DNA from: Candidatus Latescibacterota bacterium
Lineage (GTDB): Bacteria > Latescibacterota > UBA2968 > GCA-2709665
Reading direction: 5' to 3'
Assembly (NCBI GenBank): GCA_965205485.1
Contig: OZ242180.1
Coordinates: 2,048,001 to 2,112,000 of the forward strand
DNA length: 64,000 nt
Below are positions 17,594 through 36,223 of the stretch, piece by piece. The notes beneath the pieces were generated by a model. The model was given only the letters and a program-made list of their open reading frames with translations. It searched no databases and was not told the origin of the DNA. Numbering within the stretch: position 1 is the first letter of the stretch; every line of letters begins with the position of its first letter. A program made the position numbers and the translations under genes.

Positions 17594-17642
17594 ACGCCTC
17601 AGTACGCCTTTCGATAATTAGGACACCGGCCTTCAAACGCCC

Positions 17643-18206: not shown

Positions 18207-19906
18207 ATTTCCTCCGGCGCCTTCAGGCCAAGCAGGTGGAGTCCCGTAGCCAGCACGGCGGTAATCGAATAAACGAGCGCGATTCGCGCGCGGGTGAGCG
18301 ACACGTCGTCCGAAATGACCCGGTGTGCGTTGTAAAACCGGTTTGCCTCGGTGCAGAGTTCGATCAGGAACCCGGCAATCAGAGACGGCTCACAGGTTTC
18401 GGCCGCGTTCCGGATTCGCTCGGGAAACCGTTCCATGCACTTGACCACGGCCACGGTCTCGGGTTCGGTCAACAGAGAAAGGTCCGCGTCTGACGGTGGC
18501 ACCGCGCCTCCGTACCTGCGCAACACACTGCAATACCGGGCGTGGGTATATTGTATGTAGGGGCCGGTCTCACCGTTGAAATTCAGGATCTCATCCCAGT
18601 CGAACACCACATCCCGCGTCCGGCGGGAATCCAGGTCCGCATAGACGACCGCACCGATGCCCACGTCCCGCGCGATCCCATCCCTTTCGGAAAGATCCGG
18701 ATTCTTGTCCTCCACAATGTCCCGTGTCAACTCAATGGCTCGGTTCAGCACGTCCTCCAGGAAAATTACGTTTCCCCGGCGGCTCGACATCCTTCCTTCC
18801 TTAAAGGAAATAATGCCGAACGGAACGTGTACGCAGTCTTTCGCCCATTCACAGCCCATCCGTTCCAGCACCTTGAAGAGCTGCCGGAAATGCAGGGACT
18901 GCCCGGCGTCGGTCGTATAAATCAACTTGTCGAAGTCGTAGGTCTTCTTCCGGTAAATCGCCGCTGCCAGGTCCCGCGTGAGATAGACGCTGGTATCGTG
19001 TCCGGTCTGGATGATGGCCGGAGGCATGTCATCTTCATCCAGCATGACGACAAGGGCGCCCTCACTCTCCACGGCAAGTCCCCTGGCCTTCAGTTCGTCT
19101 ATTACGGGTCCGACCTTGTCGTGGAAGAAACTCTCTCCTGTATATTCCGCAAACGTGACATCCAGCAGTTCGTAGATCCGCTTGAAGTCCTTGACCGTCT
19201 CGTCTCTGAACCACTTCCAAAGTCGAAGCGCTTCCGTGTCCCCCGCCTCCAGTTTCTTTGTCCAGTACTTTACGGCGTTTCCGAGAGACGGGTCCTTTTC
19301 CATCTCAGCGTTGTATTTTACGTAAAGATTGAAGAGCGCATAGGGCGGATTCTCACGAATCGCGTTATCGTCTCCCCAGCGCTTGTATGCGGCGATGCTC
19401 ATCCCGTGCTTGGCGCCCCAGTCCCCAAGGTGGTTGATGCCGATCACGTTCCATCCCGTGGCCTTGTACAGCCTGCAGAGCGAGTTCCCGATTGCAGTCG
19501 AACGGATGTGCGCGATCGTGAACGGTTTGGAGACATCCGGCGAGGAGAAGTCGATCACGACCGTCTTTCCCGAGCCCACGTCGCTTCGGCCGAATTGCCC
19601 GCGCCTGGCGAGGATTTCCGAAAGTGTCTCCCGCACGAATTCGGTCTGGCTCACGTAAAAATTGAGATACGGGCCCTCAGCCCGCACCCGGGCAATTCGG
19701 CCGCCGGTCCGAATGCTCACCCCAAGATCCCGGGCGATCTGATTCGGCGCTTTACGCAGTGTTTTTGCAAACCTGAAGCACGGAAGCGCGTAATCCCCCA
19801 TCTCGGGCTTTGGGGGGACCTCAACCAGCGACCGCACATCATCATGCGGCATGTCAGTTGCCGCAGACACCTGCGATACGATTTCTTCAACAAAAGGATT
19901 GACCAT
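18203..19906 (-). CDS. argS: arginine--tRNA ligase
   Basis: GDYALPCF, GPYLNF, DFSSP..AHIRSTAIG, NHLGDWG, RMSSRRG, GETGPYIQYTHAR. Confidence 0.95.
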   Translation of the reverse strand: MVNPFVEEIVSQVSAATDMPHDDVRSLVEVPPKPEMGDYALPCFRFAKTLRKAPNQIARDLGVSIRTGGRIARVRAEGPYLNFYVSQTEFVRETLSEILARRGQFGRSDVGSGKTVVIDFSSPDVSKPFTIAHIRSTAIGNSLCRLYKATGWNVIGINHLGDWGAKHGMSIAAYKRWGDDNAIRENPPYALFNLYVKYNAEMEKDPSLGNAVKYWTKKLEAGDTEALRLWKWFRDETVKDFKRIYELLDVTFAEYTGESFFHDKVGPVIDELKARGLAVESEGALVVMLDEDDMPPAIIQTGHDTSVYLTRDLAAAIYRKKTYDFDKLIYTTDAGQSLHFRQLFKVLERMGCEWAKDCVHVPFGIISFKEGRMSSRRGNVIFLEDVLNRAIELTRDIVEDKNPDLSERDGIARDVGIGAVVYADLDSRRTRDVVFDWDEILNFNGETGPYIQYTHARYCSVLRRYGGAVPPSDADLSLLTEPETVAVVKCMERFPERIRNAAETCEPSLIAGFLIELCTEANRFYNAHRVISDDVSLTRARIALVYSITAVLATGLHLLGLKAPEEM

Positions 19907-20551: not shown

Positions 20552-21301
20552 CTACGGTTTTGACGCCATGTAGAGTGTGGCGAGGGTCAGCCGGCGTTCC
20601 ACCGCATCCTGAAACCCCGCCTGCGTCAAACGCATTCGAAATGCTTCTCCCTCCGGAAATCCCATAACGGACTCATAGAGATACCGGTACGCCAGAGGGT
20701 TCCGTGAAACAAGCCGGCCGATTCCGGGAAGGATGATTCTGAAATAGAAGAGGTAAACCCTGCTCAACAGGAACGCTCTGGGACGGGAAAACTCCAGAAT
20801 CAACAGGAACGCTCTGGGACGGGAAAACTCCAGAATCGCCAGCCGGCCGCCCGGGCGCAGCACACGGAGTATCTCGAGAAGGCCGGCGTTCAGGTCCGAA
20901 AAGTTCCGAACTCCGAAACCGATCGTTACCGCGTGAAACCGTGCATCGGGAAACGGCAGCCGTTGCGCGTCTCCCCGAAGCAGGTACAGCCGGCCGGATC
21001 TTCTCTTTCGCTTTCTGTTCCCGATCCGAAGCATTGGCAGTGAAAGGTCGGCGCCCACAACCCGCACCCCCGGGTCGCGCGCAGCCGCTTCGAGTCCCAG
21101 GTCGGCCGTTCCGGTTGCCAGATCCAGGATCCACCAGCCCGTTTCCGGATCCAGTGCGTCGACCGTCCAGCGCCGCCAGAGAATATCCACGCCGGCGCTC
21201 AACAGGTGGTTCAGCAGATCGTACGTGCCGGCAATACCGTCGAACATCTGACGAACGAAGGTCCGCCTGGCATCGCGTTCCTGATGGTCGGAACCCGCCA
21301 C
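20552..21301 (-). CDS. ubiE: UbiE/MenG C-methyltransferase carrying an in-frame 12-aa tandem duplication
   Basis: MFDGIAGTYDLLNHLLSAG, LDLATGTAD, GDAQRLPF, FGVRN, LRPGG, YRYLYES. Confidence 0.9.
   Translation of the reverse strand: MAGSDHQERDARRTFVRQMFDGIAGTYDLLNHLLSAGVDILWRRWTVDALDPETGWWILDLATGTADLGLEAAARDPGVRVVGADLSLPMLRIGNRKRKRRSGRLYLLRGDAQRLPFPDARFHAVTIGFGVRNFSDLNAGLLEILRVLRPGGRLAILEFSRPRAFLLILEFSRPRAFLLSRVYLFYFRIILPGIGRLVSRNPLAYRYLYESVMGFPEGEAFRMRLTQAGFQDAVERRLTLATLYMASKP
20764..20835. repeat. perfect 36-bp tandem duplication inside ubiE
   Basis: tcaacaggaacgctctgggacgggaaaactccagaa twice (20764-20799, 20800-20835), giving ILEFSRPRAFLL twice. Confidence 0.95.
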
Positions 21302-21303
21302 CG

Positions 21304-22170
21304 CTACGCCCGAAACCGGCCGATTGTCGCCTGCTTCATCACGTCGACGGGCGGATCGATACCCGTCCAGATGGCAAACGAACGCGCGCCCTGGTGCACA
21401 AGCATATCCAGGCCTCCATACGCCGGCGCTCCGGCGGATCGGAACTGACGCATCAGGAGCGTATCCAGCGGATTGAAAACCGTGTCGTAGAGTACCAGCT
21501 GCGGGTGTATCGCGTCTGTATCCGCCAGGGGCGTCCGCTCCACGTCCGGAACCATCCCCAGCGACGTTCCGTTCACGACCAGGCCGGCATCGGCGAATCG
21601 ACTCATCTGCGTGTCTTTCTTCAGGTCACCCGCGTCGATTGCCTTACCCGTTATGCGTTGCATATCACGCGCGAGGGCCTCAGCCCGGGCAACGGTCCGG
21701 TTGAGAATGCTCACTCGCCTCACTTCTTTCCGCGAGGCCAGCGCGTAAACCGCCGCCCGCGCAACGCCACCCGCGCCCAGGATCACGCAATGCTCCGGGA
21801 GCTCGGCGAGACCCGCGGTGCGCTCCAGGGCGGTGACCAATCCGTACACGTCGGTATTCTGCCCGACCAGCTCGCCGTCCCTGAGAGAAATCGTGTTCAC
21901 CGCGCCCACGGCCAGCGCTTCTTCCGAAATCCGGTCCAGGTGCGGCATCACCGCGGATTTGTGGGGAAGGGTAACGTTTAATCCCCGGATCTGCAGTGCG
22001 CGCATACCGTCAAGCGCCGGTTCAATCCCGTCCGGCAATACGTGAAAGGCGACGTAACAGTAATCGATCTCAAGAACGTCTATGGCCGCATTGTGCATGT
22101 CCGGAGAAAACGAGTGGGTGATGGGGTCGCCCATCACGCCCAGCAATCGCGTGGTCGAGACAATACCCAA
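21304..22170 (-). CDS. aroE: shikimate dehydrogenase
   Basis: GDPITHSFSP, GLNVTLPHK, GAVNT, NTDVYG, GAGGVARA, NRT, GLDMLVHQG. Confidence 0.95.
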   Translation of the reverse strand: MGIVSTTRLLGVMGDPITHSFSPDMHNAAIDVLEIDYCYVAFHVLPDGIEPALDGMRALQIRGLNVTLPHKSAVMPHLDRISEEALAVGAVNTISLRDGELVGQNTDVYGLVTALERTAGLAELPEHCVILGAGGVARAAVYALASRKEVRRVSILNRTVARAEALARDMQRITGKAIDAGDLKKDTQMSRFADAGLVVNGTSLGMVPDVERTPLADTDAIHPQLVLYDTVFNPLDTLLMRQFRSAGAPAYGGLDMLVHQGARSFAIWTGIDPPVDVMKQATIGRFRA

Positions 22171-22261
22171 AACAGACTCCTCTGGCCTGGTGCTCTGTTC
22201 CGGTTATCGCGCATTGCCAGCCGGAGTTCCTCCAAACCGAAACCGGCAACGCGTTGCTCGT

Positions 22262-22318
22262 CAGCCCGTCGAAAAGGCCCAACCGGCCTCGCCTGCAGAG
22301 CGATTTTATCAACGGGTC
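22262..22318 (-). mobile_element. MITE family A, minimal internally deleted copy
   Basis: cagcccgtcgaaaaggcccaaccgg joined directly to cctcgcctgcagagcgattttatcaacggg, i.e. both ends of family A with the middle removed. Confidence 0.75.
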
Positions 22319-22449
22319 AGGTCCGACACAAACTGGTCGGCAATGGCGAAACTCTCTTTCCACGAACAGTTGTAGGTGTACCGAATGAAGACCACGCCTC
22401 CCAGGAACACCAGCAACGCCAGAAGGAATAACCTGACAACCAGTCTCAT
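22309..22449 (-). CDS. unannotated 46-aa single-pass membrane protein
   Basis: MRLVVRLFLLALLVFLGGVVFIRYTYNCSWKESFAIADQFVSDLTR; AGGAGAG RBS before the ATG; same strand as the operon; below the ORF-track size cutoff. Confidence 0.7.
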   Translation of the reverse strand: MRLVVRLFLLALLVFLGGVVFIRYTYNCSWKESFAIADQFVSDLTR

Positions 22450-22542
22450 AAGGCTCTCCTCGTATCGAAGATTGACTCACGCCGCCTGCAACGGCCGGCT
22501 GCCGCCGCAGCGCAAGGCGGGCATCTGAATGTTGCGCAGGAA

Positions 22543-23847
22543 CTACGCTTTCTGTACCGACGCCAGCCGGTCCATCATCCCCAGATCCAAGGGCCCGGGA
22601 TTCCTGACGAGCGTGTCCCCCTCGCTGGCCAGCGCTGCCAGCCGGAGCGCCATGGACACGCGGGCGTCGCCGGCGGCATCGAGCTCGTCGCCTTGAGGTT
22701 GCCCCCCCTTCACAACCAGCCCGTCCGGCATCTCTCCCACTTGAATGTCCATCTTCCTCAGGTTCTCCACGAGAACCGAAATACAGTCAACCGGTCCAGT
22801 CCTCAATGCCCCGGCATCCCGTATTATGGTTTCGCCCCGGGAAACGGCGCCCGCGACCGCCACGAGTGGGAGCACGTCCCGCATCAGTCGCGCGTTCGCA
22901 CCCGCGATCCTTATGCCGCGCAGGTCGGACCCCCTGATCCGTAAGTTCCGGGCAGGGAAACCGGAATCCGTCCGGAAATGGGTCACATCCATAGCCACGT
23001 TCATCCTGCGCAGTATGTCCACGATCCTGCGGCTTCTCGAGTCCATTCCGAAATGCCTCAACGTCAAATCGGACTGTTTCAGCATCGCCGCAGCCAGGGC
23101 GAGAAACAACCCGGCGTCCGGACTTCCCGGCAACTCATGGGTAGCGGCGCGGAGCCGCACGGGTCCTTCCATCAACAACCGATAACCTCCGTCCTCCTTG
23201 ATCCGCTTCTTCTTCAGATCGCATCCCGCGGCCCGGAGCAACACTTCCAGATCGTCGTCCCCGCCGGTGTCCTGAAGGAGTTCTATCGGCCCATCCACAC
23301 CCAAACCGGCCATCAGCACGCCGCATTTTACCGCCAGGTCGGGACGTCCGACGCGGTAGGATCCGCCGGTCAGCCCCGATCCACCAACTCCGGCCGATAT
23401 CCCGTCCCCAACAGAAGTATCCACGTGCGCGCCCAGCGATCGAAGCGCCTCGGCAACCCGGTACACGCCGTCATCGGTCTGAACCCCGGAGAGCCTCGTT
23501 ACAAAAGGGGCGCTGGACAACAATCCCGCCAGACAGGAAAACAGAATAAGGGAACCGTCCACATTCAGCACATCGTCCGTCGACCGGAACGGCGCGCCGG
23601 TTACCGCAGCGGTCTCACCATCCCGCGCAACCATAATCCCGAGTTGCGACAGCAACTCACCGGTTCGCTCGACGTCGCGTCTTCGCGAACACCTGCGGAC
23701 TTCGGAAATCCCGTCGGCCGTGGACGCAAGGGCGAGGGCGATTATCGAAAGTTCAGCATCGCCGGGGAGGTCGGTAACCCCCTTGAGCCCGGGCGATGGC
23801 TTGATGGTGTCTTCGGAGACTATCGGACCCGTGAGTTCCAAATCCAC
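22543..23847 (-). CDS. EPSP synthase (AroA)-fold protein with degenerate active site
   Basis: 434 aa with AroA layout (LKGVTDLPGD.., GETIIRDA..LR, LRKMDIQVGEMPDGLVVKGG, GDARVSMA); catalytic motifs are substituted (see findings). Confidence 0.8.
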   Translation of the reverse strand: MDLELTGPIVSEDTIKPSPGLKGVTDLPGDAELSIIALALASTADGISEVRRCSRRRDVERTGELLSQLGIMVARDGETAAVTGAPFRSTDDVLNVDGSLILFSCLAGLLSSAPFVTRLSGVQTDDGVYRVAEALRSLGAHVDTSVGDGISAGVGGSGLTGGSYRVGRPDLAVKCGVLMAGLGVDGPIELLQDTGGDDDLEVLLRAAGCDLKKKRIKEDGGYRLLMEGPVRLRAATHELPGSPDAGLFLALAAAMLKQSDLTLRHFGMDSRSRRIVDILRRMNVAMDVTHFRTDSGFPARNLRIRGSDLRGIRIAGANARLMRDVLPLVAVAGAVSRGETIIRDAGALRTGPVDCISVLVENLRKMDIQVGEMPDGLVVKGGQPQGDELDAAGDARVSMALRLAALASEGDTLVRNPGPLDLGMMDRLASVQKA

Positions 23848-23852
23848 TTCTG

Positions 23853-24965
23853 CTACCTCATCCTGACGCGGTAGCCCGCCTTCGCCAGTACGTCAACGGC
23901 CCGTTCCGCGCACGAACGTGAATCGAACCCCATCCGAATGGTGCCCCCTTCCCCCTCGCGCACGTTCAGCACCTCGATGTCGTTTATGTTGATATTCTCT
24001 GCGGACAATGTCCGGGCGACGTGGGCAATCACACCCGGTCTGTCTTCCGCCAGCAGAAGGATTTCGTACAGTGGATGCAGGAATCCCTTGGAGTCCTTCG
24101 GGATCTGTCCGCGTATTCGATTCGCATAGGCAAATGCCTGTTCCAGACGGGCGCGGTCCACGGCCGAGCGAATTGCCGAAAGCGACTCCATATAAAGATC
24201 GATCATCTCGCGGATCGGGGCCGCGTTGGTATGGCAGATGTCCCGCCACATTTCATATGGACTGGAAGCAATGCGCGTCAGGTCCCGAAACCCCCCCGCC
24301 GCCATTTGAATCGGCAGTCCTTCGTCTTCCGTCATCCTTCCGACCATGGACACCAGGCTTGTGGCCATCATCTGCGGCAGGTGGCTTACCGCCGCCGCCG
24401 CGCGGTCGTGTTCCCGGGGCGTCATCTTCATCGGTCTGGCCCCGAATGCCCTTACGAGACGCGCGAGCTTTTCAACCACGATATCGGGCGTGTCCGGCGA
24501 CGGCGTCAACACATAAATCGCATTCTGAAAAAGGAACGGGTCCGCCGCGCTCACCCCTCGATGCTCGGAACCGGCCATCGGGTGCCCGCCGACAAAATGC
24601 GCGTCATCCCTTGCGTGGGCCGTCGCCGTGGAGACAATCGCGTGCTTGGTGCTGCCGACATCGGTCACGAGCGCATCCTGTCGCGCCGCTCCCAGCACCT
24701 CAGGCAGCATGTCCAGAATACGGACGATGGGCGTACACAGGAAAACCAGCGCCGCATCGCGAATCCCGGATTCGAGGTCCTCATAGCGATAGCCCGCGTC
24801 GATAACATCCAGCTCGAAGGCCGCGTCCAGGGTCTCCTGCCGGCTGATACCGACGATATGACTTCCAATGCCCAGACCCTTGAGCGCCAGCCCGAGCGAA
24901 CCGCCGATCAGCCCCACCCCGACAACTGCAATCGCATCGCGCGCAAAAGGAGGATCGTTGGCCAT
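23853..24965 (-). CDS. tyrA: prephenate/arogenate dehydrogenase with C-terminal ACT domain
   Basis: GVGLIGGS, TDVGSTK, GGHPMAGSE, HD...AAVSHLP, GGFRDLTRIASS; ACT EDRPGVIA..NININDI; ATG 24965 preferred over TTG 25043. Confidence 0.93.
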   Translation of the reverse strand: MANDPPFARDAIAVVGVGLIGGSLGLALKGLGIGSHIVGISRQETLDAAFELDVIDAGYRYEDLESGIRDAALVFLCTPIVRILDMLPEVLGAARQDALVTDVGSTKHAIVSTATAHARDDAHFVGGHPMAGSEHRGVSAADPFLFQNAIYVLTPSPDTPDIVVEKLARLVRAFGARPMKMTPREHDRAAAAVSHLPQMMATSLVSMVGRMTEDEGLPIQMAAGGFRDLTRIASSPYEMWRDICHTNAAPIREMIDLYMESLSAIRSAVDRARLEQAFAYANRIRGQIPKDSKGFLHPLYEILLLAEDRPGVIAHVARTLSAENININDIEVLNVREGEGGTIRMGFDSRSCAERAVDVLAKAGYRVRMR

Positions 24966-25043
24966 GCGGTCATCCTCGGAGGTCGAGGAGAATGCGCCCT
25001 CGGGACGTTGGGGTCCGTTTCTGTCTTCCGGTCCCGTTCGCAA

Positions 25044-26072
25044 TCATATCCCCTCGGCCAGTTCCTTTACGAACGCCTCGGTGTCTTCCCACCCCAGGCA
25101 CGGATCGGTAATGGATTTGCCGTACACGCCGTCATTGACGTCTTGCGCCCCCTCAACCAGATAGCTCTCCACCATCAATCCGCGGATCATGTCGTTCAGG
25201 AACGGCGAATTCTGCCGGCTGCGTATCACTTCCAAACCGATCCGCGGCTGTTCGCTGAACTGCTTGCCCGAGTTATTGTGATTCGTATCCACGACGATCG
25301 CGGCGTTGGCAAGCGGCCGCTGCCGATACAGTTCCGCCGCGTACATGAGGTCCTCGAAATGGTAATTCGGGATGCTGCGCCCGGTTACGTCCACGGCGCC
25401 GCGAAGCACGGCGTGCGTCATGGGATTGCCGTCGGTGCGTACCTCCCAGCCGTTATAGATGAAGACGTGCGGGATCTGGGAGGCATGAATTGCGTTCAGC
25501 ATAACCGAAAGATCTCCTCCCGTCGGGTTTTTCATTCCCACGGGAACGTCAACGCCGCTGCAGGTCAATCGGTGCTGCTGGTTTTCTACCGACCGGGCGC
25601 CCACGGCTATATAGCTCAGCAGGTCCTCGACGTACGGCAAATTGCCCGGATAGAGCATCTCGTCGGCCGCCGTCAGGTGGGATTCACGGACCGCCCGGAT
25701 GTGCATCTGACGGACCGCGTAAATGCCCTCGGACATGTCCGGCGCCTTTCGCGGGTCCGGCTGATGTCCCATGCCCTTGTATCCCTCGCCGGTTGTGCGG
25801 GGTTTGTTGGTATAGAGCCGGGGCACCAGAATGAGCGTTTCCCGGACGGTCTCCTGCAGTTTCGCCAACCGGGAGACGTATTCACATACGGCGTCTTCAT
25901 TGTGCGCGGAGCAGGGGCCGATCACCAGGAGAAACTTCCGGCTCCTGCGCGCGAAGACGTCGCGGATTTCCGCATCCCGCTGCTCCTTTATACCCTTCAG
26001 GTTCTTCGGAAGCGGCATCTTGTCCAGCACGGCTTCCGGGGTGGGTATCTTCATGTTTTTCGTGAATGCCAT
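25044..26072 (-). CDS. 3-deoxy-7-phosphoheptulonate (DAHP) synthase, class I-alpha
   Basis: IGPCSAH, KPRTTGEGYKG, VGARSVENQQHR, GMKNP, LRG, GLMVES, GKSITDPCLGW; isozyme (aroF/G/H) not assignable. Confidence 0.95.
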   Translation of the reverse strand: MAFTKNMKIPTPEAVLDKMPLPKNLKGIKEQRDAEIRDVFARRSRKFLLVIGPCSAHNEDAVCEYVSRLAKLQETVRETLILVPRLYTNKPRTTGEGYKGMGHQPDPRKAPDMSEGIYAVRQMHIRAVRESHLTAADEMLYPGNLPYVEDLLSYIAVGARSVENQQHRLTCSGVDVPVGMKNPTGGDLSVMLNAIHASQIPHVFIYNGWEVRTDGNPMTHAVLRGAVDVTGRSIPNYHFEDLMYAAELYRQRPLANAAIVVDTNHNNSGKQFSEQPRIGLEVIRSRQNSPFLNDMIRGLMVESYLVEGAQDVNDGVYGKSITDPCLGWEDTEAFVKELAEGI

Positions 26073-26141: not shown

Positions 26142-26353
26142 GAAGCTGTTTTAAAATTACCGGTGAGTTCCCGAGCACGAGCGAAAAAGCGGCGGTTATG
26201 AGGCGCGAGGGGCGCGCAGCGCCGACGGGAGAATTCGCCCATATTTAATGTATCGTGGCTGCGCGCCCCTCGTCACTCTTGGGTGGATTTGCCCAACGCC
26301 GACCGGCGCTTTTGCAGCCGTGCGAAGACCGCTGGGAATTTTAAGACAGCTTC
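26142..26353 (+). mobile_element. MITE family B, 212-bp copy with 3-bp TAA target duplication
   Basis: TIRs gaagctgttttaaaatt / aattttaagacagcttc (1 mismatch), TAA on both flanks; internal 15-bp inverted repeat at 26206-26220 and 26258-26272. Confidence 0.85.
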
Positions 26354-26379: not shown

Positions 26380-26649
26380 TTAACTTTCCTGATTCTTCTG
26401 CATGAGGCGCCTGGACTCATCGATGATCTGCTGAAAGATACGTCGCACCGCCTCGTCGTCCGTGGGCCCCTCGTTCAGTTCAAGTATCCGGTTCAGGATC
26501 GACTTCTCACGTTCCGGCACGAAGATCGGTTGTTCGATAGCCTGCTTGATCCTGCCGATTTCCATGGCGCATTCGGCTCGTCGATTCAGAAGCTCCAGCA
26601 GCTTCTGGTCCAGGATGTCGATTTCCCTACGCCAGTCTTCAAGGTCCAT
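26380..26649 (-). CDS. monofunctional chorismate mutase (AroQ/CM_2 type)
   Basis: LEDWRREIDILDQKLLELLNRRA..IGRIK..PEREK..IF..II..SR..Q. Confidence 0.93.
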   Translation of the reverse strand: MDLEDWRREIDILDQKLLELLNRRAECAMEIGRIKQAIEQPIFVPEREKSILNRILELNEGPTDDEAVRRIFQQIIDESRRLMQKNQES

Positions 26650-27451
26650 CGGATGCTCCCTTCAGCGGTTGCACCAGTTCTTGGACGAATTCCCCGATGT
26701 GCGAAACGAGGTCCGGGTCGGTCTGCCGCTGTGCGATCCGCCGTACGATTGCGCTGCCAACCACGACCGCATCCGCGTATCCTGCAACCTCTCCGGACTG
26801 TTCGGGCGTTGAAATCCCGAATCCGACAGCTACCGGTTGCGAGGTGTGTCGCCGGATTGCCGCCACCCTTTCGCCCAGTGTTTCCTCCAGGCGGTCCCGC
26901 TCCCCGGTCACACCCGTGCGGGACACGTAATACACGAATCCGCTGGTGTGAGACGCGATCCGTCGAATGCGGTCCTCGCGGCTGGTGGGCGCGATGAGAA
27001 AAATCGTATCCAATCCCCGTTTCTCCATCAGACCCTTGTACTCCCCCGCCTCTTCCGGTGGAAGATCCAGCGCCAGAATGCCGTCCACCCCCGCTTCGGC
27101 CGCTCTGTCGACAAGCCGTTCGAGACCGAAACGGTGCATCGGATTGAAATACGTAAACAGGACAATGGGTATCTCGGACTCCAGGCGCAGTTCCGCCACC
27201 AGGTCCATGACGTCGCCGATGGAAACGCGATGCCTCAGCGCCCGCTGCGAGGCTGCCTGGATCTCAGGTCCGTCCGCCAGCGGATCGGAGAACGGTACGC
27301 CCAGCTCAAGTATGTCCACCCCGCGCCGTTCCAGCTCCGGTACGAGTTTCCGGGTGGTTGCCATATCCGGGTCTCCGGCCGTGATATAGGCGACAAACCC
27401 GGTCTTTCCCGCACTCTTCAACGCTTCGAACCGTCTCCCGATCCTCGTCAT
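26639..27451 (-). CDS. trpA: tryptophan synthase alpha chain
   Basis: YITAGDP, ELGVPFSDPLADGPEIQ, YYVSRTGVTG, VGFGIS, VVVGSA. Confidence 0.97.
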   Translation of the reverse strand: MTRIGRRFEALKSAGKTGFVAYITAGDPDMATTRKLVPELERRGVDILELGVPFSDPLADGPEIQAASQRALRHRVSIGDVMDLVAELRLESEIPIVLFTYFNPMHRFGLERLVDRAAEAGVDGILALDLPPEEAGEYKGLMEKRGLDTIFLIAPTSREDRIRRIASHTSGFVYYVSRTGVTGERDRLEETLGERVAAIRRHTSQPVAVGFGISTPEQSGEVAGYADAVVVGSAIVRRIAQRQTDPDLVSHIGEFVQELVQPLKGASDGP

Positions 27452-27473
27452 CAGGGCAACTCCATGTAACGAG

Positions 27474-28679
27474 CTAGTCCAGGTACTTCGCCGCCTGCTG
27501 TACGTCCTTGTCGCCGCGGCCTGAGAGATTCGCCACGATTATAGCATCCCTGTCCATTGCCGGCGCCGCTTTCGACACGTGCGCGATCGCGTGCGCGCTT
27601 TCCAGTGCTGGAATGATACCCTCCGTGCGACTCAACAGTTGAAACCCCTTCAGGGCTTCGTCGTCGGTTGCATACGCATACTCGATCCGGCCCTCATCCC
27701 GCAGGAGACAGTGCTCGGGGCCCACGCCGGAATAGTCCAGGCCTGCCGATACCGAATGGGTCAGTGCGATCTGCCCGTCCTCGTCCTGCAGGAGGTAGAT
27801 CCTCGCCCCGTGCAACACGCCGAGATCTCCTCCCTGAAACCGGGCGGCGTGGTCGCCGGAGGCAATGCCATGGCCTCCCGCTTCGACGCCGATCATGCGC
27901 ACGTCCGCATCGTCCAGAAACGCGTGAAACAGCCCCATCGAATTGCTGCCGCCGCCGACACATGCGATCAGACAGTCCGGCAACCGGCCTTCGGCCCGCA
28001 GGATCTGCGCGCGGGTCTCCACTCCGATCACCCGTTGAAAATCCCGTACGATCATAGGATACGGGTGAGGTCCCAGGACGGATCCGAAAATATAGAACGT
28101 ATCGTCCACGTTCGTCACCCAGTCCCGGATTGCCTCGTTGATCGCATCCTTGAGCGTCCTGCTTCCCGATTCCACGCCGGTTACTTTGGCGCCCAGGAGC
28201 CGCATCCGGAACACATTCAACGCCTGCCGGTCCATGTCCTCGGTGCCCATGTAAATCTCGCACTTCAGTCCGAACATCGCAGCTACGGTTGCCGTCGCCA
28301 CACCGTGCTGCCCGGCGCCCGTTTCGGCGATGATCCGTGTTTTTCCCATGCGCCTGGCAAGCAGAATCTGCCCCATCGTGTTGTTTATCTTGTGCGCGCC
28401 GGTGTGGGCGAGGTCCTCCCGTTTCAGATAGATTCTGGCCCCGCCCAGTTCTTCGGTCAGTCGCTGTGCGAAATAGAGTGACGTGGGCCTTCCGACAAAT
28501 TCCCTGAGATAACGGTCCAGTTCCTCGCGGAAATCCGGACGGTCCCTCGCGTCGCGGTAGGCTGATTCCAGGTCCTCGAGCAACGGCATCAACGTCTCCG
28601 GCACATAGCGCCCGCCGTAGGGTCCGAAGTGTCCCCTGGCATCGGGCCACGTCCGTGCGGCTTCATCTCTGTTGAGCAC
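27474..28679 (-). CDS. trpB: tryptophan synthase beta chain
   Basis: [62 protein letters not shown] start at 28679 overlaps the upstream TAG. Confidence 0.97.
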
Positions 28680-29656
28680 TAGATATCCCTCATCACCTGA
28701 TCGTAGAACGCCAGATAGCGGTCGCGGTCGTCCCCGTCCAGAAGCGCCATCGCCGAGCGGGGATGCTGGTTGTGCTGTCCCGTGATGTTGTACGGCACCA
28801 GGGGCCCCCACGTCAATTGCTCGCGCAATCCGACAAAGTGGGCTTCCAGCAGCTTGTAGACGGGTCGAATCTTGAATTTCGGATTGCGAAGGAAGCCGAG
28901 CAGCAGTTCGAGCGGGCAATTCCCGGCGCCGCGGCCAAGTCCGTCCACCGTGGCATCAACGCGGTTGGCGCCCAGGATAAGCGCTTCGATGGTATTGGCG
29001 AATGCCAGTTGCTGGTTGTTGTGCGCGTGAATGCCCACTTCCTTTCCCATTCCTTCGACGGCATCCATATACTTCCGGATGAGCATATCCACCTGCTCGC
29101 GGTACAATGCGCCGAAGCTGTCGACGACACAAATTGTACCCACCGGCGTTTCGACAAGGACCTCCAGCGCCTGATCGATCTCCACTTCCTGCACGGTCGA
29201 AATGGCCATGATGTTGCAGCTGGTTTCATATCCTTTCTCGTGGGCGTCGCAGAGCATTTCAACGGTCTCGGGAATCTGCTCGACGTAGCAGGCCACCCGT
29301 ACCATGCTGACCACGCTTTCGCTGGCCGGCAGGATATCTTCCGCCCAGTCGCTTTTGCCGGCATCGGCCATGATGGCAAGCTTCAGGCCGGTTGCTTCAG
29401 GGTCGTGGTCCCCCGTGATCCTGCGGATATCTTCTTCGTCGCTGTGCCGGAAGGCTCCGAATTGCTTTTTCGGAAACATCTCTTTGGAGTTCCGGTACCC
29501 GATTTCCATATAGTCGACGCCCGCGTCGACGCAGGTCTCATAAACTGCCTTTACGAAATCATTGGAAAACTGGTGGTCGTTCATCAATCCGCCGTCTCGA
29601 ATCGTACAGTCCAATACCTTGAGTTCCGGCCGATAGGTGATCCAGGGTGCTTTCAT
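28679..29656 (-). CDS. DRE-TIM metallolyase (HMGL-like / 4-hydroxy-2-oxovalerate aldolase-like), function unknown
   Basis: [38 protein letters not shown]. Confidence 0.88.
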
Positions 29657-29839: not shown

Positions 29840-31102
29840 TCAGAGATTCCAGCGCACGAGAAAGTAGCGGCGTTTGCCCCGGCGCACGACCACGTATCTG
29901 CCGGCGATTCTGTCCGAGGGTTCAAGCATCATGCCCGTATCGGCGCAACGCCGGCCATTGACGTATATCGCGCCGGACCGGATATCTTCCCGCGCCTGGC
30001 GCATGGAAGATGAAATGCCGACGTTGACCAGCAGATCCATCAGTCCCACGCCTGAAACGCCATTGAGCGCCTGAGACGGCACGTCGCTGAACCCTTCCTC
30101 GATCTCTCGCGCACTCAGGTCTCTCAGTTCCCCGTAGAACAACGCGTCGGAAATCCGCCGCGCCCTTTCGGTGGCGGATCTGTCATGTACGAGCGTGGTG
30201 ACCTCCTCGGCCAGCACCCGCTGTGCCTCTCGCTTTTCGGGATGTTCTGTCACTTCCGTTTCCAGATTCCTGATTTCATTCCCGGAAAGAAAGGTAAACA
30301 GCTTCAGAAACGACACGACGTCCCGGTCGTCCGTATTGATCCAATGCTGGTAAAACTGGTAGGGCGTCGTTTTTCCAGCGTCGAGCCAGACGGTGCCGGA
30401 TGCCGTCTTTCCGAACTTGGAGCCGTCTGCCTTCTCAAGCAGTGGAAACGTCAGGCCGTGCGCCTGTCCGCCCAGCCGGCGCCGGATCAGCTCGATTCCC
30501 GCTGTAATATTGCCCCATTGATCGCTCCCGCCAATCTGGAGCTCGCATCCGTGCGCCTGAAACAACTCCATGAAATCATAGGCCTGAATGACCATATAGC
30601 TGAACTCGGTGAATGAGATTCCTGTTTCCAGCCGGGAAGCCACGGACTCTTTCGCCAGCATATAGCCCATGGAGAAGTGCTTGCCCGTGTCCCTCAGGAA
30701 GTCGATCGCCTTCAGTTCGGAGAGCCATCCCAGATTGCTGACCACCCGGGCGGGATTGGCTCCGGTCTCAAAATCGAGAAACCGGGCGAGTTGCTCTGTG
30801 AGTCTTCCGGTATATTCCGCGATCAACTCGGGCGGGTTCAACGGACGTTCTTCCTTACTGCCGCTCGGATCACCTATCAGACCCGTGCCTCCCCCGATAA
30901 GCCCAATCGCATGATGCCCGGCCAGCTGAAACCGCCGCAATCCGAGAATGGGTATCAGGTTGCCCACGTGCAAGCTGTCGGCCGTGGGGTCGAACCCTGA
31001 ATAAAGCGTTATGGGCCCATCGGCCAGCCGCGCTTCGAGTCCGTCGGGATCGGTTACCTGAAAGAGGTACCCCCGAAAATTTAGATCTTTCAAGATGTCC
31101 AC
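29840..31102 (-). CDS. tyrS: tyrosine--tRNA ligase
   Basis: YSGFDPTADSLHVGN, GLIGDPSG, QIGGSDQWGNI, KFGKT, S4-like C-terminus. Confidence 0.97.
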   Translation of the reverse strand: MDILKDLNFRGYLFQVTDPDGLEARLADGPITLYSGFDPTADSLHVGNLIPILGLRRFQLAGHHAIGLIGGGTGLIGDPSGSKEERPLNPPELIAEYTGRLTEQLARFLDFETGANPARVVSNLGWLSELKAIDFLRDTGKHFSMGYMLAKESVASRLETGISFTEFSYMVIQAYDFMELFQAHGCELQIGGSDQWGNITAGIELIRRRLGGQAHGLTFPLLEKADGSKFGKTASGTVWLDAGKTTPYQFYQHWINTDDRDVVSFLKLFTFLSGNEIRNLETEVTEHPEKREAQRVLAEEVTTLVHDRSATERARRISDALFYGELRDLSAREIEEGFSDVPSQALNGVSGVGLMDLLVNVGISSSMRQAREDIRSGAIYVNGRRCADTGMMLEPSDRIAGRYVVVRRGKRRYFLVRWNL

Positions 31103-31125: not shown

Positions 31126-31770
31126 TCAGACATGCTGTTGGCGGCGATTCGCAAAGCGGAGCGCCCTCAAAAACTCGCGGATTCTGGCGTGGTCCTTCCG
31201 GCCGGGCGCGGCTTCAACGCCGCTGCCGCAGTCTACGGCGTACGGTTTCACCGTTCGGACAGCATCGGCCACGTTCGAAGGATCCATTCCCCCCGAGAGG
31301 ATGATCCGCCCGTGTGCGGTCGCTGCCCTTGCGAACCGCCAGTCAAAGGTCTCTCCGGTGCCGCCGTACCATCCCTTTTTGTCCGTATCCAGCAGAAACG
31401 TGTTTACCGGATAGTCGCTCAGGGAAGCAGGATCGAATCCGTCGCCGACCCGCAATGCCCGGATGACCGGAATCGGATAATCCAGACAGTCGGCCGGTGT
31501 CTCGTCGCCGTGCAACTGGACCGCCCGAATCCCGGTGGACCGCACGGTTTCCACGATCTCCTCCCTGGCCTTGTTCACGAAAACCCCTACGGGCGTCACG
31601 AACGGCGGTAACGCCGAGACAATATTGCTCACGCGTTCCGGGTGTACGTATCGCGGACTGGGCTTGTAGAAGATGAAACCGAGCGCGTCCACGCCGTGTG
31701 CGACAGAAAAGAGCGCATCTTCCGGATTTGTAATCCCGCAAATCTTCACGCGAACCATGAGTCGGGTCAA
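31126..31770 (-). CDS. trpF: phosphoribosylanthranilate isomerase
   Basis: VKICGIT, GFIFY..SPR, VGVFVN, VQLHGDE, GGTGETFDW, SGVE..PG.KD; start TTG 31770 or ATG 31758. Confidence 0.95.
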   Translation of the reverse strand: MTRLMVRVKICGITNPEDALFSVAHGVDALGFIFYKPSPRYVHPERVSNIVSALPPFVTPVGVFVNKAREEIVETVRSTGIRAVQLHGDETPADCLDYPIPVIRALRVGDGFDPASLSDYPVNTFLLDTDKKGWYGGTGETFDWRFARAATAHGRIILSGGMDPSNVADAVRTVKPYAVDCGSGVEAAPGRKDHARIREFLRALRFANRRQQHV

Positions 31771-32558
31771 CCGCCTTCCCTGCCCAGCAGCGTTCGAAGC
31801 TTCCGGCCGACGTCGGGATGGCGCATCAGATGCTCCCCAACAAGCACCCCATCCACGCCGGCATCCCCCAACCGGACGACGTCGTCCCTGGTCTCGATCC
31901 CGCTCTCGCTTACAATGACCGGACCTCCCTGAAGATGTTCAATCAGTTCGAACGTGGTTCGCAAATCGGTTTCAAACGTCTTCAGGTTGCGGTTATTCAC
32001 CCCGACAAGGTCTGCGCCCGCGTCCAGCGCAATACTCGCTTCCTCCCTGGTGTGTACTTCCACCAGGGCGTCCAGGTCCGACTCCCTGCAGACTGTGAGC
32101 ATCTCCGGAAGTTCACGTTTCGAGAGCGCTGAGACAATCAGCAGAACCGCGGCCGCACCGATTGTCCTGGCTTCGTGGATCTGATACGGATCGATCACAA
32201 AATCCTTGCGGAGCACCGGCAGTTGTACGGCTTCGCTTACGGCGCTCAGACTCGCGTCGGAGCCCTGGAAATACTTTTCGTCCGTAAGCACGGAAATTGC
32301 CGCCGCGCCGTTCTTCTCGTAGGCCCGGCCGATTGCAACCGGATCGAAATCTTCCCTGATTACCCCTTTCGATGGAGATGCCTTTTTTATTTCCGCTATG
32401 AGCGCGATATCCTCCGCGTCGGTCAGGCTTTTCGTCAGGGAGCCCGGCGCCCGCGTCTGGCCCGCCCTTTCCCACAAAACCCCGGGCGAGACCCGTTGTT
32501 TTGCCTCGGCCACAACGCGCCGCTTGTATGCGATGATCTCATCCAGGATGGTAGCCAT
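31767..32558 (-). CDS. trpC: indole-3-glycerol phosphate synthase
   Basis: IAEIKKASPSKG, ISVLTD..FQGS, LRKDF, GVNNRNL, SESGI; ATG 32558. Confidence 0.97.
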   Translation of the reverse strand: MATILDEIIAYKRRVVAEAKQRVSPGVLWERAGQTRAPGSLTKSLTDAEDIALIAEIKKASPSKGVIREDFDPVAIGRAYEKNGAAAISVLTDEKYFQGSDASLSAVSEAVQLPVLRKDFVIDPYQIHEARTIGAAAVLLIVSALSKRELPEMLTVCRESDLDALVEVHTREEASIALDAGADLVGVNNRNLKTFETDLRTTFELIEHLQGGPVIVSESGIETRDDVVRLGDAGVDGVLVGEHLMRHPDVGRKLRTLLGREGG

Positions 32559-32559
32559 T

Positions 32560-33573
32560 TTATCCGTTCGAAACCAGTTTGAGTTCTTCCAGTTTATCCA
32601 TTGCTCGCCCGGAATCCACGGCCTCTCTGGCCAGTTCCATAGCCGCTGGCAGATCATCCGCCGCGCCGCCCGCTGCAATCGCGGCTGCCGCGTTCAACAG
32701 AACGATGTCAAGCCGCGGACCGGGCTCGCCGTGCAGCACCCTGCGCAGGATCGCCGCATTGGTCTCGGCGCTTCCTCCCGCCAGGTCGCCTGGCGACGCC
32801 CTCGGGATGCCCAGCTCCTCGGGCGTGATTTCGTACGTGGAAACCGTCCCGTCGTTCAGCTCGCTCACCTGCGTCGGTCCGGTCGTGGTGATCTCATCAA
32901 GTCCGTCCAGCCCGTGTACCACAAACGCACGTTCCGAATCCAGTGTTCGCAATACCTCCGCCAGCGTGTCGGTCAGAGACCGGCTGTATACCCCGATCAG
33001 GTGCCGGGTGGCGCCTGCCGGATTGGTCAGCGGCCCAAGGGCATTGAAGACCGTGCGCGCGCCAAGCTCGCGTCTGGGTCCGATCGCATACTTCATGGCG
33101 CCGTGCAAAGCCGGAGCAAACAGAAACCCGATGCCCGTCTCGTCCAGACACCGCCCCATCGTCTCCGGCGACGCTTCGATGTTCACCCCCAGTTCCTTCA
33201 GAACGTCGGCGCTTCCACAGAGGCTGGATGCGGCGCGGTTTCCGTGTTTGGCGACGCACAATCCGGCGCCGGCCACGACAAACGCCGCCGCCGTGGAGAT
33301 ATTGAACGTTCCGGAACCGTCTCCACCGGTACCGCATGTATCGACCACCGTCGCGTGCCGCGTGCCGACCCGCGAGGCCTTTTCCCTCATTACCTCGGCG
33401 GCGCCGGCGATCTCCTCCACTGTCTCGCCCTTGACCCGGAGAGCCACAAGGAAAGCGCCAATCTGCGCGTCCGTGGCCCCACCCGACATGATCTGGTTCA
33501 TCGCCCCGATCATCCGGTCGCGCGTCAGGTTCTCACCCTCAATCAGTTTCGCGATCGCATCCTTAATCGACAT
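32560..33573 (-). CDS. trpD: anthranilate phosphoribosyltransferase
   Basis: DTCGTGGDG..TFNIST, KHGNR..SS..GSADVL, RTVFNALGPLTNP, GLDE; ATG 33573. Confidence 0.97.
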   Translation of the reverse strand: MSIKDAIAKLIEGENLTRDRMIGAMNQIMSGGATDAQIGAFLVALRVKGETVEEIAGAAEVMREKASRVGTRHATVVDTCGTGGDGSGTFNISTAAAFVVAGAGLCVAKHGNRAASSLCGSADVLKELGVNIEASPETMGRCLDETGIGFLFAPALHGAMKYAIGPRRELGARTVFNALGPLTNPAGATRHLIGVYSRSLTDTLAEVLRTLDSERAFVVHGLDGLDEITTTGPTQVSELNDGTVSTYEITPEELGIPRASPGDLAGGSAETNAAILRRVLHGEPGPRLDIVLLNAAAAIAAGGAADDLPAAMELAREAVDSGRAMDKLEELKLVSNG

Positions 33574-33628
33574 AGCCGTCTCCCCATCATGCAAGCTGAG
33601 AATGGGACGGGTTTTCAATCCCTGGAGT

Positions 33629-34192
33629 TCAGCCTTCCAGAAAATTCCTCAACAACACTTTACCCTCGGCCGTCAATATGGACTCGGGATGAAACTGAAC
33701 GCCTTCAACCGGGTAATTCCTGTGCCGCAGACCCATGATTATACCATCGTCTGTCTGCGCGGACACTTCGAGGCAGTCCGGAAGGCTCCCCCTTTCGACC
33801 ATCAGCGAATGGTATCGCGTTGCGATGAAGGGATGGGACATATCACGGAAAATCGTACGTCCGTCGTGATGAATCTCGGACACCTTACCGTGAAGAATTG
33901 CCGGCGCCCTCACAACCTTGCCGCCAAAGGCCTGTCCGATGCACTGGTGCCCGAGACAGACACCCAGCATTGGAATCCGCCCGCTGAATCGCCGGATAAG
34001 ATCCACGGAGACACCCGCCTCGTTCGGTGTGCAGGGACCGGGCGAAATCACCACCTTCTCCGGCTGAGTTGCGTCGATCCGGTCAAGTTCGATCTGATCG
34101 TTCCGAAACACGTCCATCCGTGCGCCCAACTCGCCCAGATACTGGACCAGATTGTACGTGAACGAATCGTAATTGTCGATTACCAGGATCAT
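33629..34192 (-). CDS. trpG: anthranilate synthase component II (glutamine amidotransferase)
   Basis: [36 protein letters not shown]; located between trpE and trpD. Confidence 0.93.
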
Positions 34193-34241: not shown

Positions 34242-34346
34242 TAACAGTCCGTTGAGAAAGTCGCTCTGCAGGCGAGGCCGAGCAACGCAGTATTTCGACC
34301 GCAAGGGCCGGCCGTAGCCCGGTTGGGCTTTTTCAACGGGCTGCTA
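34242..34346 (+). mobile_element. MITE family A, 105-bp internally deleted copy overlapping the trpE stop codon
   Basis: TAacagtccgttgagaaag ... ctttttcaacgggctgcTA; 61 bp missing relative to the 5525 copy; the terminal CTA is the trpE TAG. Confidence 0.85.
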
Positions 34347-35834
34347 GACCGCACCCTCCGCCAGTTCCACCGCCCTGAACAGCGCCTTCGCCTTGTTTAC
34401 GGTTTCCTGGTGCTCGTTTTCCGGTACGGAATCGAACACAATCCCACCGCCGGCCTGGACGTACGCTTTCCGTCCCTGCAGCACCATCGTACGTATGGCG
34501 ATGCACGTATCCATATTGCCCGAAAAATCTATATAACCCACGGCCCCCGAGTACGGCCCGCGGCGGGTCGGCTCCAGTTCGTCGATAATTTCCATCGCCC
34601 GAATCTTGGGCGCGCCGGAAACCGTACCTGCCGGATAACAGGCATACAGCGCATCCAGTGCATCCACGCCGTCCCTGAGGCGACCCCGAACGTTCGAGAC
34701 GATATGCATCACGTGAGAATAACGCTCAATTGCCATCTGTTCGGTCACACGTACGGTATCGTATCTGGATACCCGACCGACGTCGTTCCGGCCCAGGTCC
34801 AGCAGCATTATATGCTCCGCACGTTCCTTTTCGTCCGCCAGCAGGTCCGCCGCGAGGGTGGAATCCTCCTCCTCCGTAGCCCCTCTCCAGCGTGTGCCCG
34901 CAATGGGACGCACCTGCACGACGCCGTTCTCGACACGCACCAGCAGTTCCGGCGAGGCGCCTACGAGTTGCACGTCCATGAGGTCCAGATGAAACATGTA
35001 CGGCGACGGATTCACCGTGCGCAGCGCACGGTATATGTCCAGAGATCCCACGCTGATCTCGGTCTCGAAGCGCTGTGAGAGTACAACCTGGAAAATATCG
35101 CCCGCGACGATATATTCCTTGCAACGACGCACCTTGTCCAGAAAAACCGACCGTTCCGTGTTCGACCGGATTTCACTCGCCCGGTTGCCGGATGTTACCG
35201 CCGGGACGCCGTTGGCGGGAATCGGCCCCCGCAATGCCGTTTCCAGCGCATCGATTCGCGCTTCCGCCTCCCGGTAATTCTGCTCGATATCTCCCGAGGT
35301 ATGCACATTGGATATCAGATGGATCTTCTGCCTGACGTTGTCGAAGCCAAGTAGCGTATCGTAGAAGAGTAATACGACGTCCGGCAGACCGTGGTCGTCG
35401 CGCGTCCGGTCGGGGATGTTCTCAACCAGCCGGATCGCATCGTAGGCCACGTAACCCACGGCTCCGCCGGTAAACCGGGGCAGTCCCTCCAACTGCGCCG
35501 AACGGAATTTCCCCAGCAGACGCCTGAGCTCGGCGATGGGCGATCCCTCAAACGCCCTCACGCCGCCCCGCTTCAGATCCTCTATCTCAATCCGGGTTTT
35601 CCACGACCGAAAGGCAAGGAACGGCTCCACGCCCAGGAAGGAATAACGGCCGATCTTTTCGCCTCCTTCCACGCTTTCGAAAAGAAAGCTGTAGGGACTC
35701 CCGGACCGCACCTTCAAATAGGCGGAAACCGGGGTTTCGGTATCCCCCAGGATTTCGCGGGAGATTGGGACGATTCCCTGGCCCATGGCCAACGTTTTTG
35801 TCGTCTCCAAATCGGGTGTGTTCACGAATTTCAC
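34344..35834 (-). CDS. trpE: anthranilate synthase component I
   Basis: DTETPVSAY, LFESVEGGEKIGRYSF, GGAVGY, GDIFQVVLSQRF, NPSPYMF, RPIAGT, KERAEH, GTVSGAPK; start placed at GTG 35834 (or 35825) because the ORF-track start lies inside the attenuator hairpin. Confidence 0.95.
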   Translation of the reverse strand: MKFVNTPDLETTKTLAMGQGIVPISREILGDTETPVSAYLKVRSGSPYSFLFESVEGGEKIGRYSFLGVEPFLAFRSWKTRIEIEDLKRGGVRAFEGSPIAELRRLLGKFRSAQLEGLPRFTGGAVGYVAYDAIRLVENIPDRTRDDHGLPDVVLLFYDTLLGFDNVRQKIHLISNVHTSGDIEQNYREAEARIDALETALRGPIPANGVPAVTSGNRASEIRSNTERSVFLDKVRRCKEYIVAGDIFQVVLSQRFETEISVGSLDIYRALRTVNPSPYMFHLDLMDVQLVGASPELLVRVENGVVQVRPIAGTRWRGATEEEDSTLAADLLADEKERAEHIMLLDLGRNDVGRVSRYDTVRVTEQMAIERYSHVMHIVSNVRGRLRDGVDALDALYACYPAGTVSGAPKIRAMEIIDELEPTRRGPYSGAVGYIDFSGNMDTCIAIRTMVLQGRKAYVQAGGGIVFDSVPENEHQETVNKAKALFRAVELAEGAV

Positions 35835-35894
35835 CAGGCAGTTGGCCGCTTGTGCCGCTATTTCGCGGTAATGGCGCCCTGAGTCGGCCGAATC

Positions 35895-35924
35895 AAAAAA
35901 AAACCGTGAGCAGATGCCCACGGC
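35895..35924 (-). terminator. attenuator terminator upstream of trpE
   Basis: Minus strand CCGUGGGC-AUCU-GCUCACGG followed by U9. Confidence 0.9.
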
Positions 35925-35948
35925 CCGGTTTACGTCTTTTTCAGCAGT

Positions 35949-36056
35949 TTACTCGCGTGGGCAGACACAACGATCCGAGGCCTCCCGGTAATACCACCGG
36001 TAGGAGCGATAAAAATATCCACGCAAGGAAAACCCGTCTTGACCACGATCCGTCAC
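35949..36056 (-). CDS. aromatic-rich leader peptide (35 aa) of the trp/aro operon
   Basis: GGAGG (36068-36064), 7-nt spacer, GTG; MTDRGQDGFSLRGYFYRSYRWYYREASDRCVCPRE; stop codon about 25 nt before the terminator. Confidence 0.85.
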   Translation of the reverse strand: MTDRGQDGFSLRGYFYRSYRWYYREASDRCVCPRE

Positions 36057-36135
36057 GATCAATCCTCCACAATCCAGTGTCCTGCCGGTTTCGAACCGGG
36101 CGACGGCAAGCAGCCGCTCCGACAGGAACGGTCTA

Positions 36136-36164
36136 ACGTTAAACAATCACATCGAGAGTGTCAA
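36136..36164 (-). promoter_or_regulatory. sigma70-type promoter of the leader/trpE operon
   Basis: Minus strand TTGACA (36164-36159), N17, TAACGT (36141-36136). Confidence 0.7.
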
Positions 36165-36223
36165 GGAAATTCCATAAACCCGGTCGCGGATCCTCGTCGT
36201 CTTCGAGACATTTCGGTCGTCAT

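Follow-up and report, generated by a model that had tools for sequence, protein, structure and literature searches.

A predicted ribosome-mediated attenuator with a tyrosine-dominated, mixed aromatic leader peptide ahead of a trp-tyrS-aro cluster in Candidatus Latescibacterota

Attenuators of the trpL type are described by a segment model in which alternative helices form between segments 1 and 2 (1:2), 2 and 3 (2:3) or 3 and 4 (3:4), and the enterobacterial leaders thrL (Thr and Ile) and ilvL (Leu, Ile and Val) are multivalent examples of attenuation. Described leader-peptide attenuators include trpL, pheL and pheST of Escherichia coli and aroR of Corynebacterium glutamicum (PMC11802643). According to the accessible part of that paper, aroR encodes a Phe-Tyr-Phe leader that responds to Phe but not to Tyr, whereas the accessible part of another places it under the control of both Phe and Tyr (PMC7356990); its Tyr response is thus disputed between the two. 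In the available portion of a further source, tyrosine is listed as T-box-regulated and trpS attenuators are reported in Streptomyces (PMC1262725). Here, we analyzed a window of 64,000 nt from contig OZ242180.1 of a Candidatus Latescibacterota genome (assembly GCA_965205485.1), in which a first-pass annotation had proposed a complete attenuator upstream of trpE, with a leader peptide that may sense Tyr, Phe and Trp together. Coordinates are positions in this window unless stated otherwise, and both the leader element and the gene cluster behind it lie on the minus strand.

Inspection of the sequence found every part that had been named at its claimed position, namely the promoter, the GGAGG ribosome site, an open reading frame (ORF) of 35 codons, three exclusive pairings with matching duplex energies, and a tract of nine U residues (Table 1). 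The leader peptide, MTDRGQDGFSLRGYFYRSYRWYYREASDRCVCPRE, has seven aromatic residues in codons 14 to 23 and an additional Phe upstream at codon 9, so that the leader contains five Tyr, two Phe and one Trp codons in total. A six-frame survey of the 5.1-Mb genome found only 14 places with at least seven aromatic residues per ten codons, and this leader has the highest aromatic score among the genome's 99 candidates combining a short ORF with a terminator. The protector (1:2), antiterminator (2:3) and terminator (3:4) helices share segments and are mutually exclusive, and the intrinsic terminator lies between the leader and trpE, 70 nt before the trpE start. The element thus combines a short ORF with a ribosome site, clustered cognate codons, a terminator, an exclusive antiterminator and a protector, as a classical attenuator does. 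A consensus promoter scan did not list the leader promoter, because its -10 box matches the consensus at only three of six positions and falls below the threshold of the scan. No Rfam family matched at its gathering score within the window, nothing relevant to the Rfam Trp leader, Phe leader or T-box was returned at E values up to 10 in 35800-36250, and the peptide had no Pfam match. Together with the conservation, covariation and swap tests below, which support the attenuator reading of this layout, the sequence makes it very likely that the element is a classical ribosome-mediated transcription attenuator, and it is probable that it reads more than one aromatic aminoacyl-tRNA.

From sequence, conservation, covariation, geometry and the correlation between codon and operon content, we infer that the leader is translated, that the transcript terminates, that each amino acid elicits a response and that all genes of the cluster are co-transcribed. 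Transcription would start near 36129, and a ribosome would load at GGAGG/GTG and trail the polymerase. When charged tRNA-Tyr, tRNA-Phe and tRNA-Trp are plentiful, the ribosome would reach the stop codon at 35951 and cover segment 2, upon which the terminator would form and the transcript would end at the U tract. Should any of these tRNAs lack its amino acid, the ribosome would pause in codons 14-23 and cover or open segment 1; segment 2, left free, would pair with segment 3 first, and the polymerase would enter trpEGDCF-tyrS-trpBA and the chorismate mutase gene, with read-through probably extending to the aro and tyrA genes. Untranslated RNA could fold into 1:2 and 3:4 and terminate. Tyr should signal most strongly in this genome according to codon number, and Phe and Trp more weakly. 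Among the three, Phe is predicted to be the weakest case, because prephenate dehydratase and pheS are encoded elsewhere in the genome, outside the cluster. Inspection by eye revealed no evident leader upstream of the prephenate dehydratase gene.

A gene for TrpE was found in all 41 relatives and in 96 of the 153 genomes of the phylum (E values up to 1e-60); at the same threshold, 53 of 69 genomes of family f4 had no match. The DNA upstream of 90 trpE loci was surveyed, with genomes grouped into families and genera (labeled f1, f2g6, etc.). A leader and terminator precede trpE in 75 of these loci, 69 recognized by script and six by eye. Two of the remaining 15 end early, and in the other 13 (families f9, f10 and f12) trpE lies close behind a co-oriented long frame that ends 19-233 nt before it. 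Conservation of the aromatic codons in relatives, on which the first-pass annotation had staked its reading beforehand, was found: Tyr, Phe and Trp are all present in the best 16-residue window of 70 of the 75 leaders. Furthermore, 61 of 69 loci have the pattern TTGACW-N16/18-TAnnnT ahead of the leader, compared with 23 of 3450 shuffles. Within the genus, start codon, length and stop are kept in 12 equal-length leaders, and the control positions vary synonymously (TAT/TAC) or by Tyr-Phe and Trp-Tyr swaps. Codon 21 is Trp in seven of these 12 leaders; codon 11, which is TTG (Leu) here, is TGG (Trp) in 11 of them; and none of the 14 leaders of the genus lacks Trp at both codon 11 and codon 21. 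A second promoter-like motif was observed between terminator and trpE in four of 69 loci (L016, L017, L278 and L279), where a second promoter would bypass the attenuator; in this interval, the motif was present neither in this genome nor in the other 13 of the genus.

Covarying stems, which the comparison of trpE upstream regions had been expected to reveal, were recovered for all three helices. Across 40 chosen sequences, the terminator was 97.5% paired, none of 500 shuffles was as good, and slid controls reached 36-43%. Double changes affected five of nine terminator pairs, with 29 such cells in these sequences, although these covariation counts are inflated by kinship. Segments 2 and 3 vary together, reading UGCCCAC/GUGGGCA in f1, GUUUGUCC/GGGCAAAC in f2g6 and GAUGCGUCC/GGACGCAUC in f4g21. 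As the MAFFT alignment misplaces segment 2 in family f4, the antiterminator was tested by swaps rather than by column counts, using one locus per genus for 20 genera and 20,000 permutations. The upstream region best fitted its own terminator arm (5/20,000), and segment 1 was found to complement its own segment 2 although it is divergent between genera (1/20,000).

Folding with ribosome-masked segments, which had been proposed as a check, agreed with the expectation in part. In 24 chosen loci, upstream pairing of the terminator arm was 0.85 with the ribosome on the aromatic codons versus 0.03 with the ribosome at the stop, and the ribosome-position geometry agreed with an attenuator in all 24, an agreement that is partly built in. 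Every aromatic codon was located where a ribosome pause would leave segment 2 free, and a pause anywhere before approximately codon 27 would free it as well.

Several results weigh against the attenuator reading. The swap signal of the antiterminator is mainly a family-block effect (f1-f3 alone gave 281/20,000, and f4 alone gave none), and per-locus shuffle tests of the 2:3 helix were weak and underpowered. The contrast at the stop codon is partly built in because the mask there covers segment 2. Without a ribosome, upstream pairing of the terminator arm averaged 0.53 and 12 of the 24 loci differed from the stalled state; half of the loci showed no predominance of the protector at equilibrium. 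In this genome, the full transcript at equilibrium always favored the terminator (0.78-1.00). Here, the antiterminator was near 0 with a footprint-only mask, because the 5' untranslated region pairs long-range, and with all 5' RNA masked the named antiterminator reached only 0.02-0.33 at codons 9-16 and 19-21. The folding energy of the 241-nt leader was no better than that of shuffles (z = -0.78), an uninformative result. As equilibrium favors the terminator, the modeling implies that the switch must be kinetic, governed by the order of folding. The folding models also suggest that occlusion of segment 2 by a ribosome at the stop codon would contribute most to switching, with the protector playing a secondary role.

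The leader is followed in the 3' direction, on the same strand, by a cluster of 18 genes in the order trpE, trpG, trpD, trpC, trpF, tyrS, a gene for an HMGL-like enzyme, trpB, trpA, chorismate mutase, DAHP synthase, tyrA, aroA, aroE, ubiE, argS, aroK and aroB (Table 1). The trp genes, tyrS, chorismate mutase, tyrA and shared shikimate-pathway genes ascribed to the operon by the first-pass annotation were borne out, with DAHP synthase, aroA, aroE and aroK among the last. The most likely start of trpE is GTG 35825 and not ATG 35786. Profile scores of tyrA, aroA and aroK were below curated cut-offs; the aroA product (22543-23847) is a divergent EPSP-synthase-like protein with 131 bits against a TIGR01356 cut-off of 287. 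The final ORF we take to be aroB on the basis of a sequence motif. The HMGL-like enzyme, encoded at 28679-29656 in the tyrS-trpB interval, also occurs in four of the 11 other f1/f2 clusters mapped. Intergenic gaps measure 307 nt between the chorismate mutase and DAHP synthase genes, 372 nt between aroA and aroE (according to estimated starts) and 645 nt between ubiE and argS. Of the 14 other clusters having the first of these junctions, 10 show a gap of <75 nt there, which makes co-transcription of the whole cluster as one long RNA plausible. Against this, the distal genes may escape leader control, given the three gaps. Within the 307-nt gap, a 14-bp inverted repeat followed by a U-rich stretch was noticed by eye at 26195-26270, possibly a repeat element or an internal terminator.

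Table 1 Features of the candidate attenuator and of the gene cluster behind it
Feature	Position in window	Strand	Evidence or details
Sigma-70-type promoter TTGACA-N17-TAACGT	36136..36164	-	TTGACA 36164-36159, TAACGT 36141-36136
Shine-Dalgarno (SD) sequence GGAGG	36064..36068	-	7 nt 5' of GTG start; anti-SD duplex -9.3 kcal/mol
Leader peptide ORF, 35 aa, GTG 36056 to TAA 35951-35949	35949..36056	-	kept in genus; no Pfam match
Segment 1 (protector 5' strand)	36019..36027	-	duplex -15.6 kcal/mol; swap test
Control codons Tyr14-Phe15-Tyr16-Arg-Ser-Tyr19-Arg-Trp21-Tyr22-Tyr23	35988..36017	-	genus comparison
Internal hairpin across codons 19-25 within the 1:2 loop (possible pause hairpin, from modeling)	35981..36004	-	minimum-energy folds
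Segment 2 (partner of segment 1 or segment 3), final four leader codons	35952..35963	-	duplex energies, swap test
Segment 3 (antiterminator 3' strand and terminator 5' arm)	35915..35923	-	duplexes, covariation, swap test
Segment 4 and U9	35895..35911	-	terminator 3' arm 35911-35904, U9 35903-35895; sequence, terminator scan
Protector helix	36027-36019 with 35960-35952	-	9 bp, -15.6 kcal/mol
Antiterminator helix	35963-35956 with 35922-35915	-	8-bp core, -16.2 kcal/mol
Terminator helix	35923-35916 with 35911-35904	-	8 bp, -16.1 kcal/mol, then U9
trpE, anthranilate synthase component I, first regulated gene (predicted)	34344..35825	-	TIGR00564, 593.6 bits vs cut-off 517.7
trpG, trpD, trpC, trpF	31126..34192	-	profile matches
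tyrS, tyrosine-tRNA ligase	29840..31102	-	TIGR00234, 389.6 bits
HMGL-like aldolase/synthase, trpB, trpA, chorismate mutase (26649-26380)	26380..29656	-	PF00682, PF01817
DAHP synthase (AroFGH type), tyrA, aroA-like, aroE, ubiE/menG	20552..26072	-	profile matches; tyrA and aroA below cut-offs
argS, aroK, aroB	16484..19906	-	argS profile match; aroK below cut-offs; aroB ORF

Across the phylum, leader codon make-up appears to follow operon content, being Tyr-rich with tyrS and Trp-rich with trpS. We mapped 40 clusters, which served as representatives for assigning an operon class to each family. Families f1 and f2 and genus f3g13 carry tyrS, and the means for their 11 genera are 3.96 Tyr, 2.77 Phe and 1.45 Trp. 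Family f4 carries trpS at the place of tyrS, with means of 1.37 Tyr, 1.37 Phe and 2.56 Trp in six genera, while five genera in which only trp genes were seen, some of them on short contigs, have means of 0.8, 1.5 and 2.5, respectively. The trpS leader of the genome studied here is centered on WWW. It belongs to a second candidate attenuator outside the window (genome positions 1326570-1326720, plus strand), in which the leader MAARGGSSGSWWWYDFNCTGRLTAC, a TTGACA promoter-like sequence, a terminator and a U tract precede a trpS-like gene. In the retrieved stretch of f4 clusters L346-L352, L366 and L367, no gene for trpF, trpB, trpA or DAHP synthase was detected.

Outside the phylum, a search for four Tyr/Phe codons combined with the terminator core, in which Trp was not selected, gave 105 matches in GTDB genomes (L379-L483), of which 83 qualify as leader plus terminator. 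Among the 80 record titles listed, Desulfobacterota and Acidobacteriota/Aminicenantes predominate. Of the 83 leaders, 32 have aroK as the first recognized downstream gene, 13 a chorismate mutase gene, two a DAHP synthase gene and one aroC, the other 35 being without assignment. By manual count, a Trp codon is present in 31 of 32 leaders before aroK versus one of 13 before chorismate mutase. These data tentatively suggest a portable core (GCCCA / GUGGGC / GCUCAC), common to Latescibacterota, Desulfobacterota and Acidobacteriota, whose codons would be rewritten as genes join the operon, and which here would serve as a tyrosine-sensing tyrS attenuator that also weighs Phe and Trp. Leaders would then be rich in Tyr where tyrS is present and in Trp where trpS or trpE is, contain all three residues before common-pathway genes and be devoid of Trp before chorismate mutase; an Arg input for argS is less likely. 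The correlation between codons and operons rests on few independent changes, the genera being kin, which counts against it. Despite these few events, three separate contrasts point the same way.

Variants of the element were also noted. In L157 and L229, from metagenome-assembled genomes of Desulfacinum and Desulfosoma, FYFYYGWY leaders stand before an AroF-type DAHP synthase gene, and the hairpin core is present in two tandem copies, forming a longer cascade than in this genome. The terminator core also recurs at L205, L176 and L256. A Leu-run leader (SAR324) and an Ile-rich leader (Spirochaetota) there stand upstream of LeuA-like genes, and a WWW leader is followed by a trpE-like gene, genes being named by eye from their N-termini. 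In Chloroflexota (L155, L163, L179, L180, L186, L214, L219 and L230), the core and short upstream frames precede genes that by eye are ABC-ATPase-like, and the frames are possibly ribosome-sensing leaders of another kind. In the genome studied here, a Val/Ser-rich short frame and a terminator precede an IlvB-like gene (genome positions 3091150-3091560, minus strand) without a clear start site, a doubtful attenuator. A looser first terminator pattern applied over genome contigs (120 loci, chance-like matches) and motif expressions for other amino-acid genes (too unspecific) were dropped.

The alternative that fares best, although we judge it unlikely, is a true attenuator that in practice senses a single amino acid (Tyr here and Trp in trpS-type relatives), its other aromatic codons being passengers kept by RNA structure or lying one mutation from Tyr codons. 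Such passengers would fit the single Trp codon of this leader, the inclusion of codon 11 (Trp in the genus) in the protector helix, the position of prephenate dehydratase and pheS outside the cluster and, as a further point against multiple inputs, the Tyr/Phe codons carried by the trpS leader and by leaders with only trp genes seen. The Phe-but-not-Tyr response of aroR (PMC11802643, in its accessible part) would be a precedent and weighs on the same side, although the account in PMC7356990, likewise accessible in part, speaks against it. However, Trp is kept at one of two positions throughout the genus, nearly all leaders of the phylum hold all three residues, Trp is present before aroK and missing before chorismate mutase (12 of 13), and stalling at any of the aromatic codons would release segment 2, which argues for reading more than one aromatic aminoacyl-tRNA.

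In TnaC, a free aromatic ligand brings about arrest of the nascent peptide. An arrest of this kind, or a gauge of general translation speed including Arg supply, is an improbable explanation of the leader. Its seven Arg codons, the invariance of Arg12, 17, 20 and 24 within the genus, the presence of argS in the cluster in families f1-f4 and the effect of any pause before approximately codon 27 would suit wider sensing, yet Arg counts track argS poorly, and this weak comparative support leaves Arg as a side possibility. For peptide arrest, the sequence, length and residue order of the peptide vary too freely across families, and a ligand-induced stall would have the wrong sign, as biosynthesis would be switched on when its product is present. 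A functional C-terminal peptide motif was rejected as well, since the terminal 'CP' only reflects segment 2, which in two of three f2g10 loci lies past the stop. A constitutive terminator that ends a gene for a small RNA or a small protein, with trpE on its own promoter, is the least probable explanation: the four loci with a second promoter-like motif and the ordinary folding energy of the whole leader would allow it, but that motif is lacking throughout this genus, antiterminator and protector are conserved and covary, the peptide has no family and keeps only its aromatic content, and the element stands before aromatic genes in several phyla. A T-box (a putatively translated ORF is present and Rfam gave no T-box match), a riboswitch and translational sequestration (the terminator leaves the trpE ribosome site uncovered) were rejected.

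The mechanism itself is textbook, and what appears unusual is its mixed-codon, Tyr-dominated form. Lopatovskaya et al. (2010) reportedly predict non-standard attenuators, possibly including delta-proteobacterial cases. In the literature searched, which included few subscription journals, neither a Tyr/Phe/Trp leader ahead of trpE nor attenuation in Latescibacterota is described, and no tested example of a three-input aromatic gauge was found. For mixed aromatic leaders in general, aroR is a precedent. The accessible main text of PMC2965389 and PMC4833913 contains no mixed aromatic leader, and their supplements list many candidates that may bear on novelty. The predicted element would extend leader-peptide attenuation to an uncultured phylum and clearly illustrate how a single leader can combine all three aromatic amino acids, tyrosine being its principal input. 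Among these leaders, codons shift with operon content, and this natural series raises the question of whether codon number and position weight the inputs; annotation gains an uncatalogued RNA motif.

Compared with known systems, the element resembles E. coli trpL-trpE, pheL-pheA and pheST in its promoter, short ORF of cognate codons, exclusive helices and U-tract terminator before the first gene, and pheST also in the predicted control of a synthetase gene, here tyrS. Unlike these attenuators, it has mixed, Tyr-dominated Tyr/Phe/Trp codons, heads a trp-tyrS-aro cluster, lacks an Rfam match and holds segment 2 inside the end of the ORF. With the tyrS T-box of Firmicutes it would share antitermination of tyrS when tRNA-Tyr is uncharged; a T-box, however, binds the tRNA directly, whereas this leader has a putatively translated ORF. 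The aroR-aroF system, as described in the accessible parts of its sources, likewise has mixed aromatic codons before aromatic-pathway genes and a ribosome stalling model, but it has three control codons without Trp and controls DAHP synthase only. Like thrL and ilvL, the leader would integrate several end products of a branched pathway, for another amino-acid family and in another lineage.
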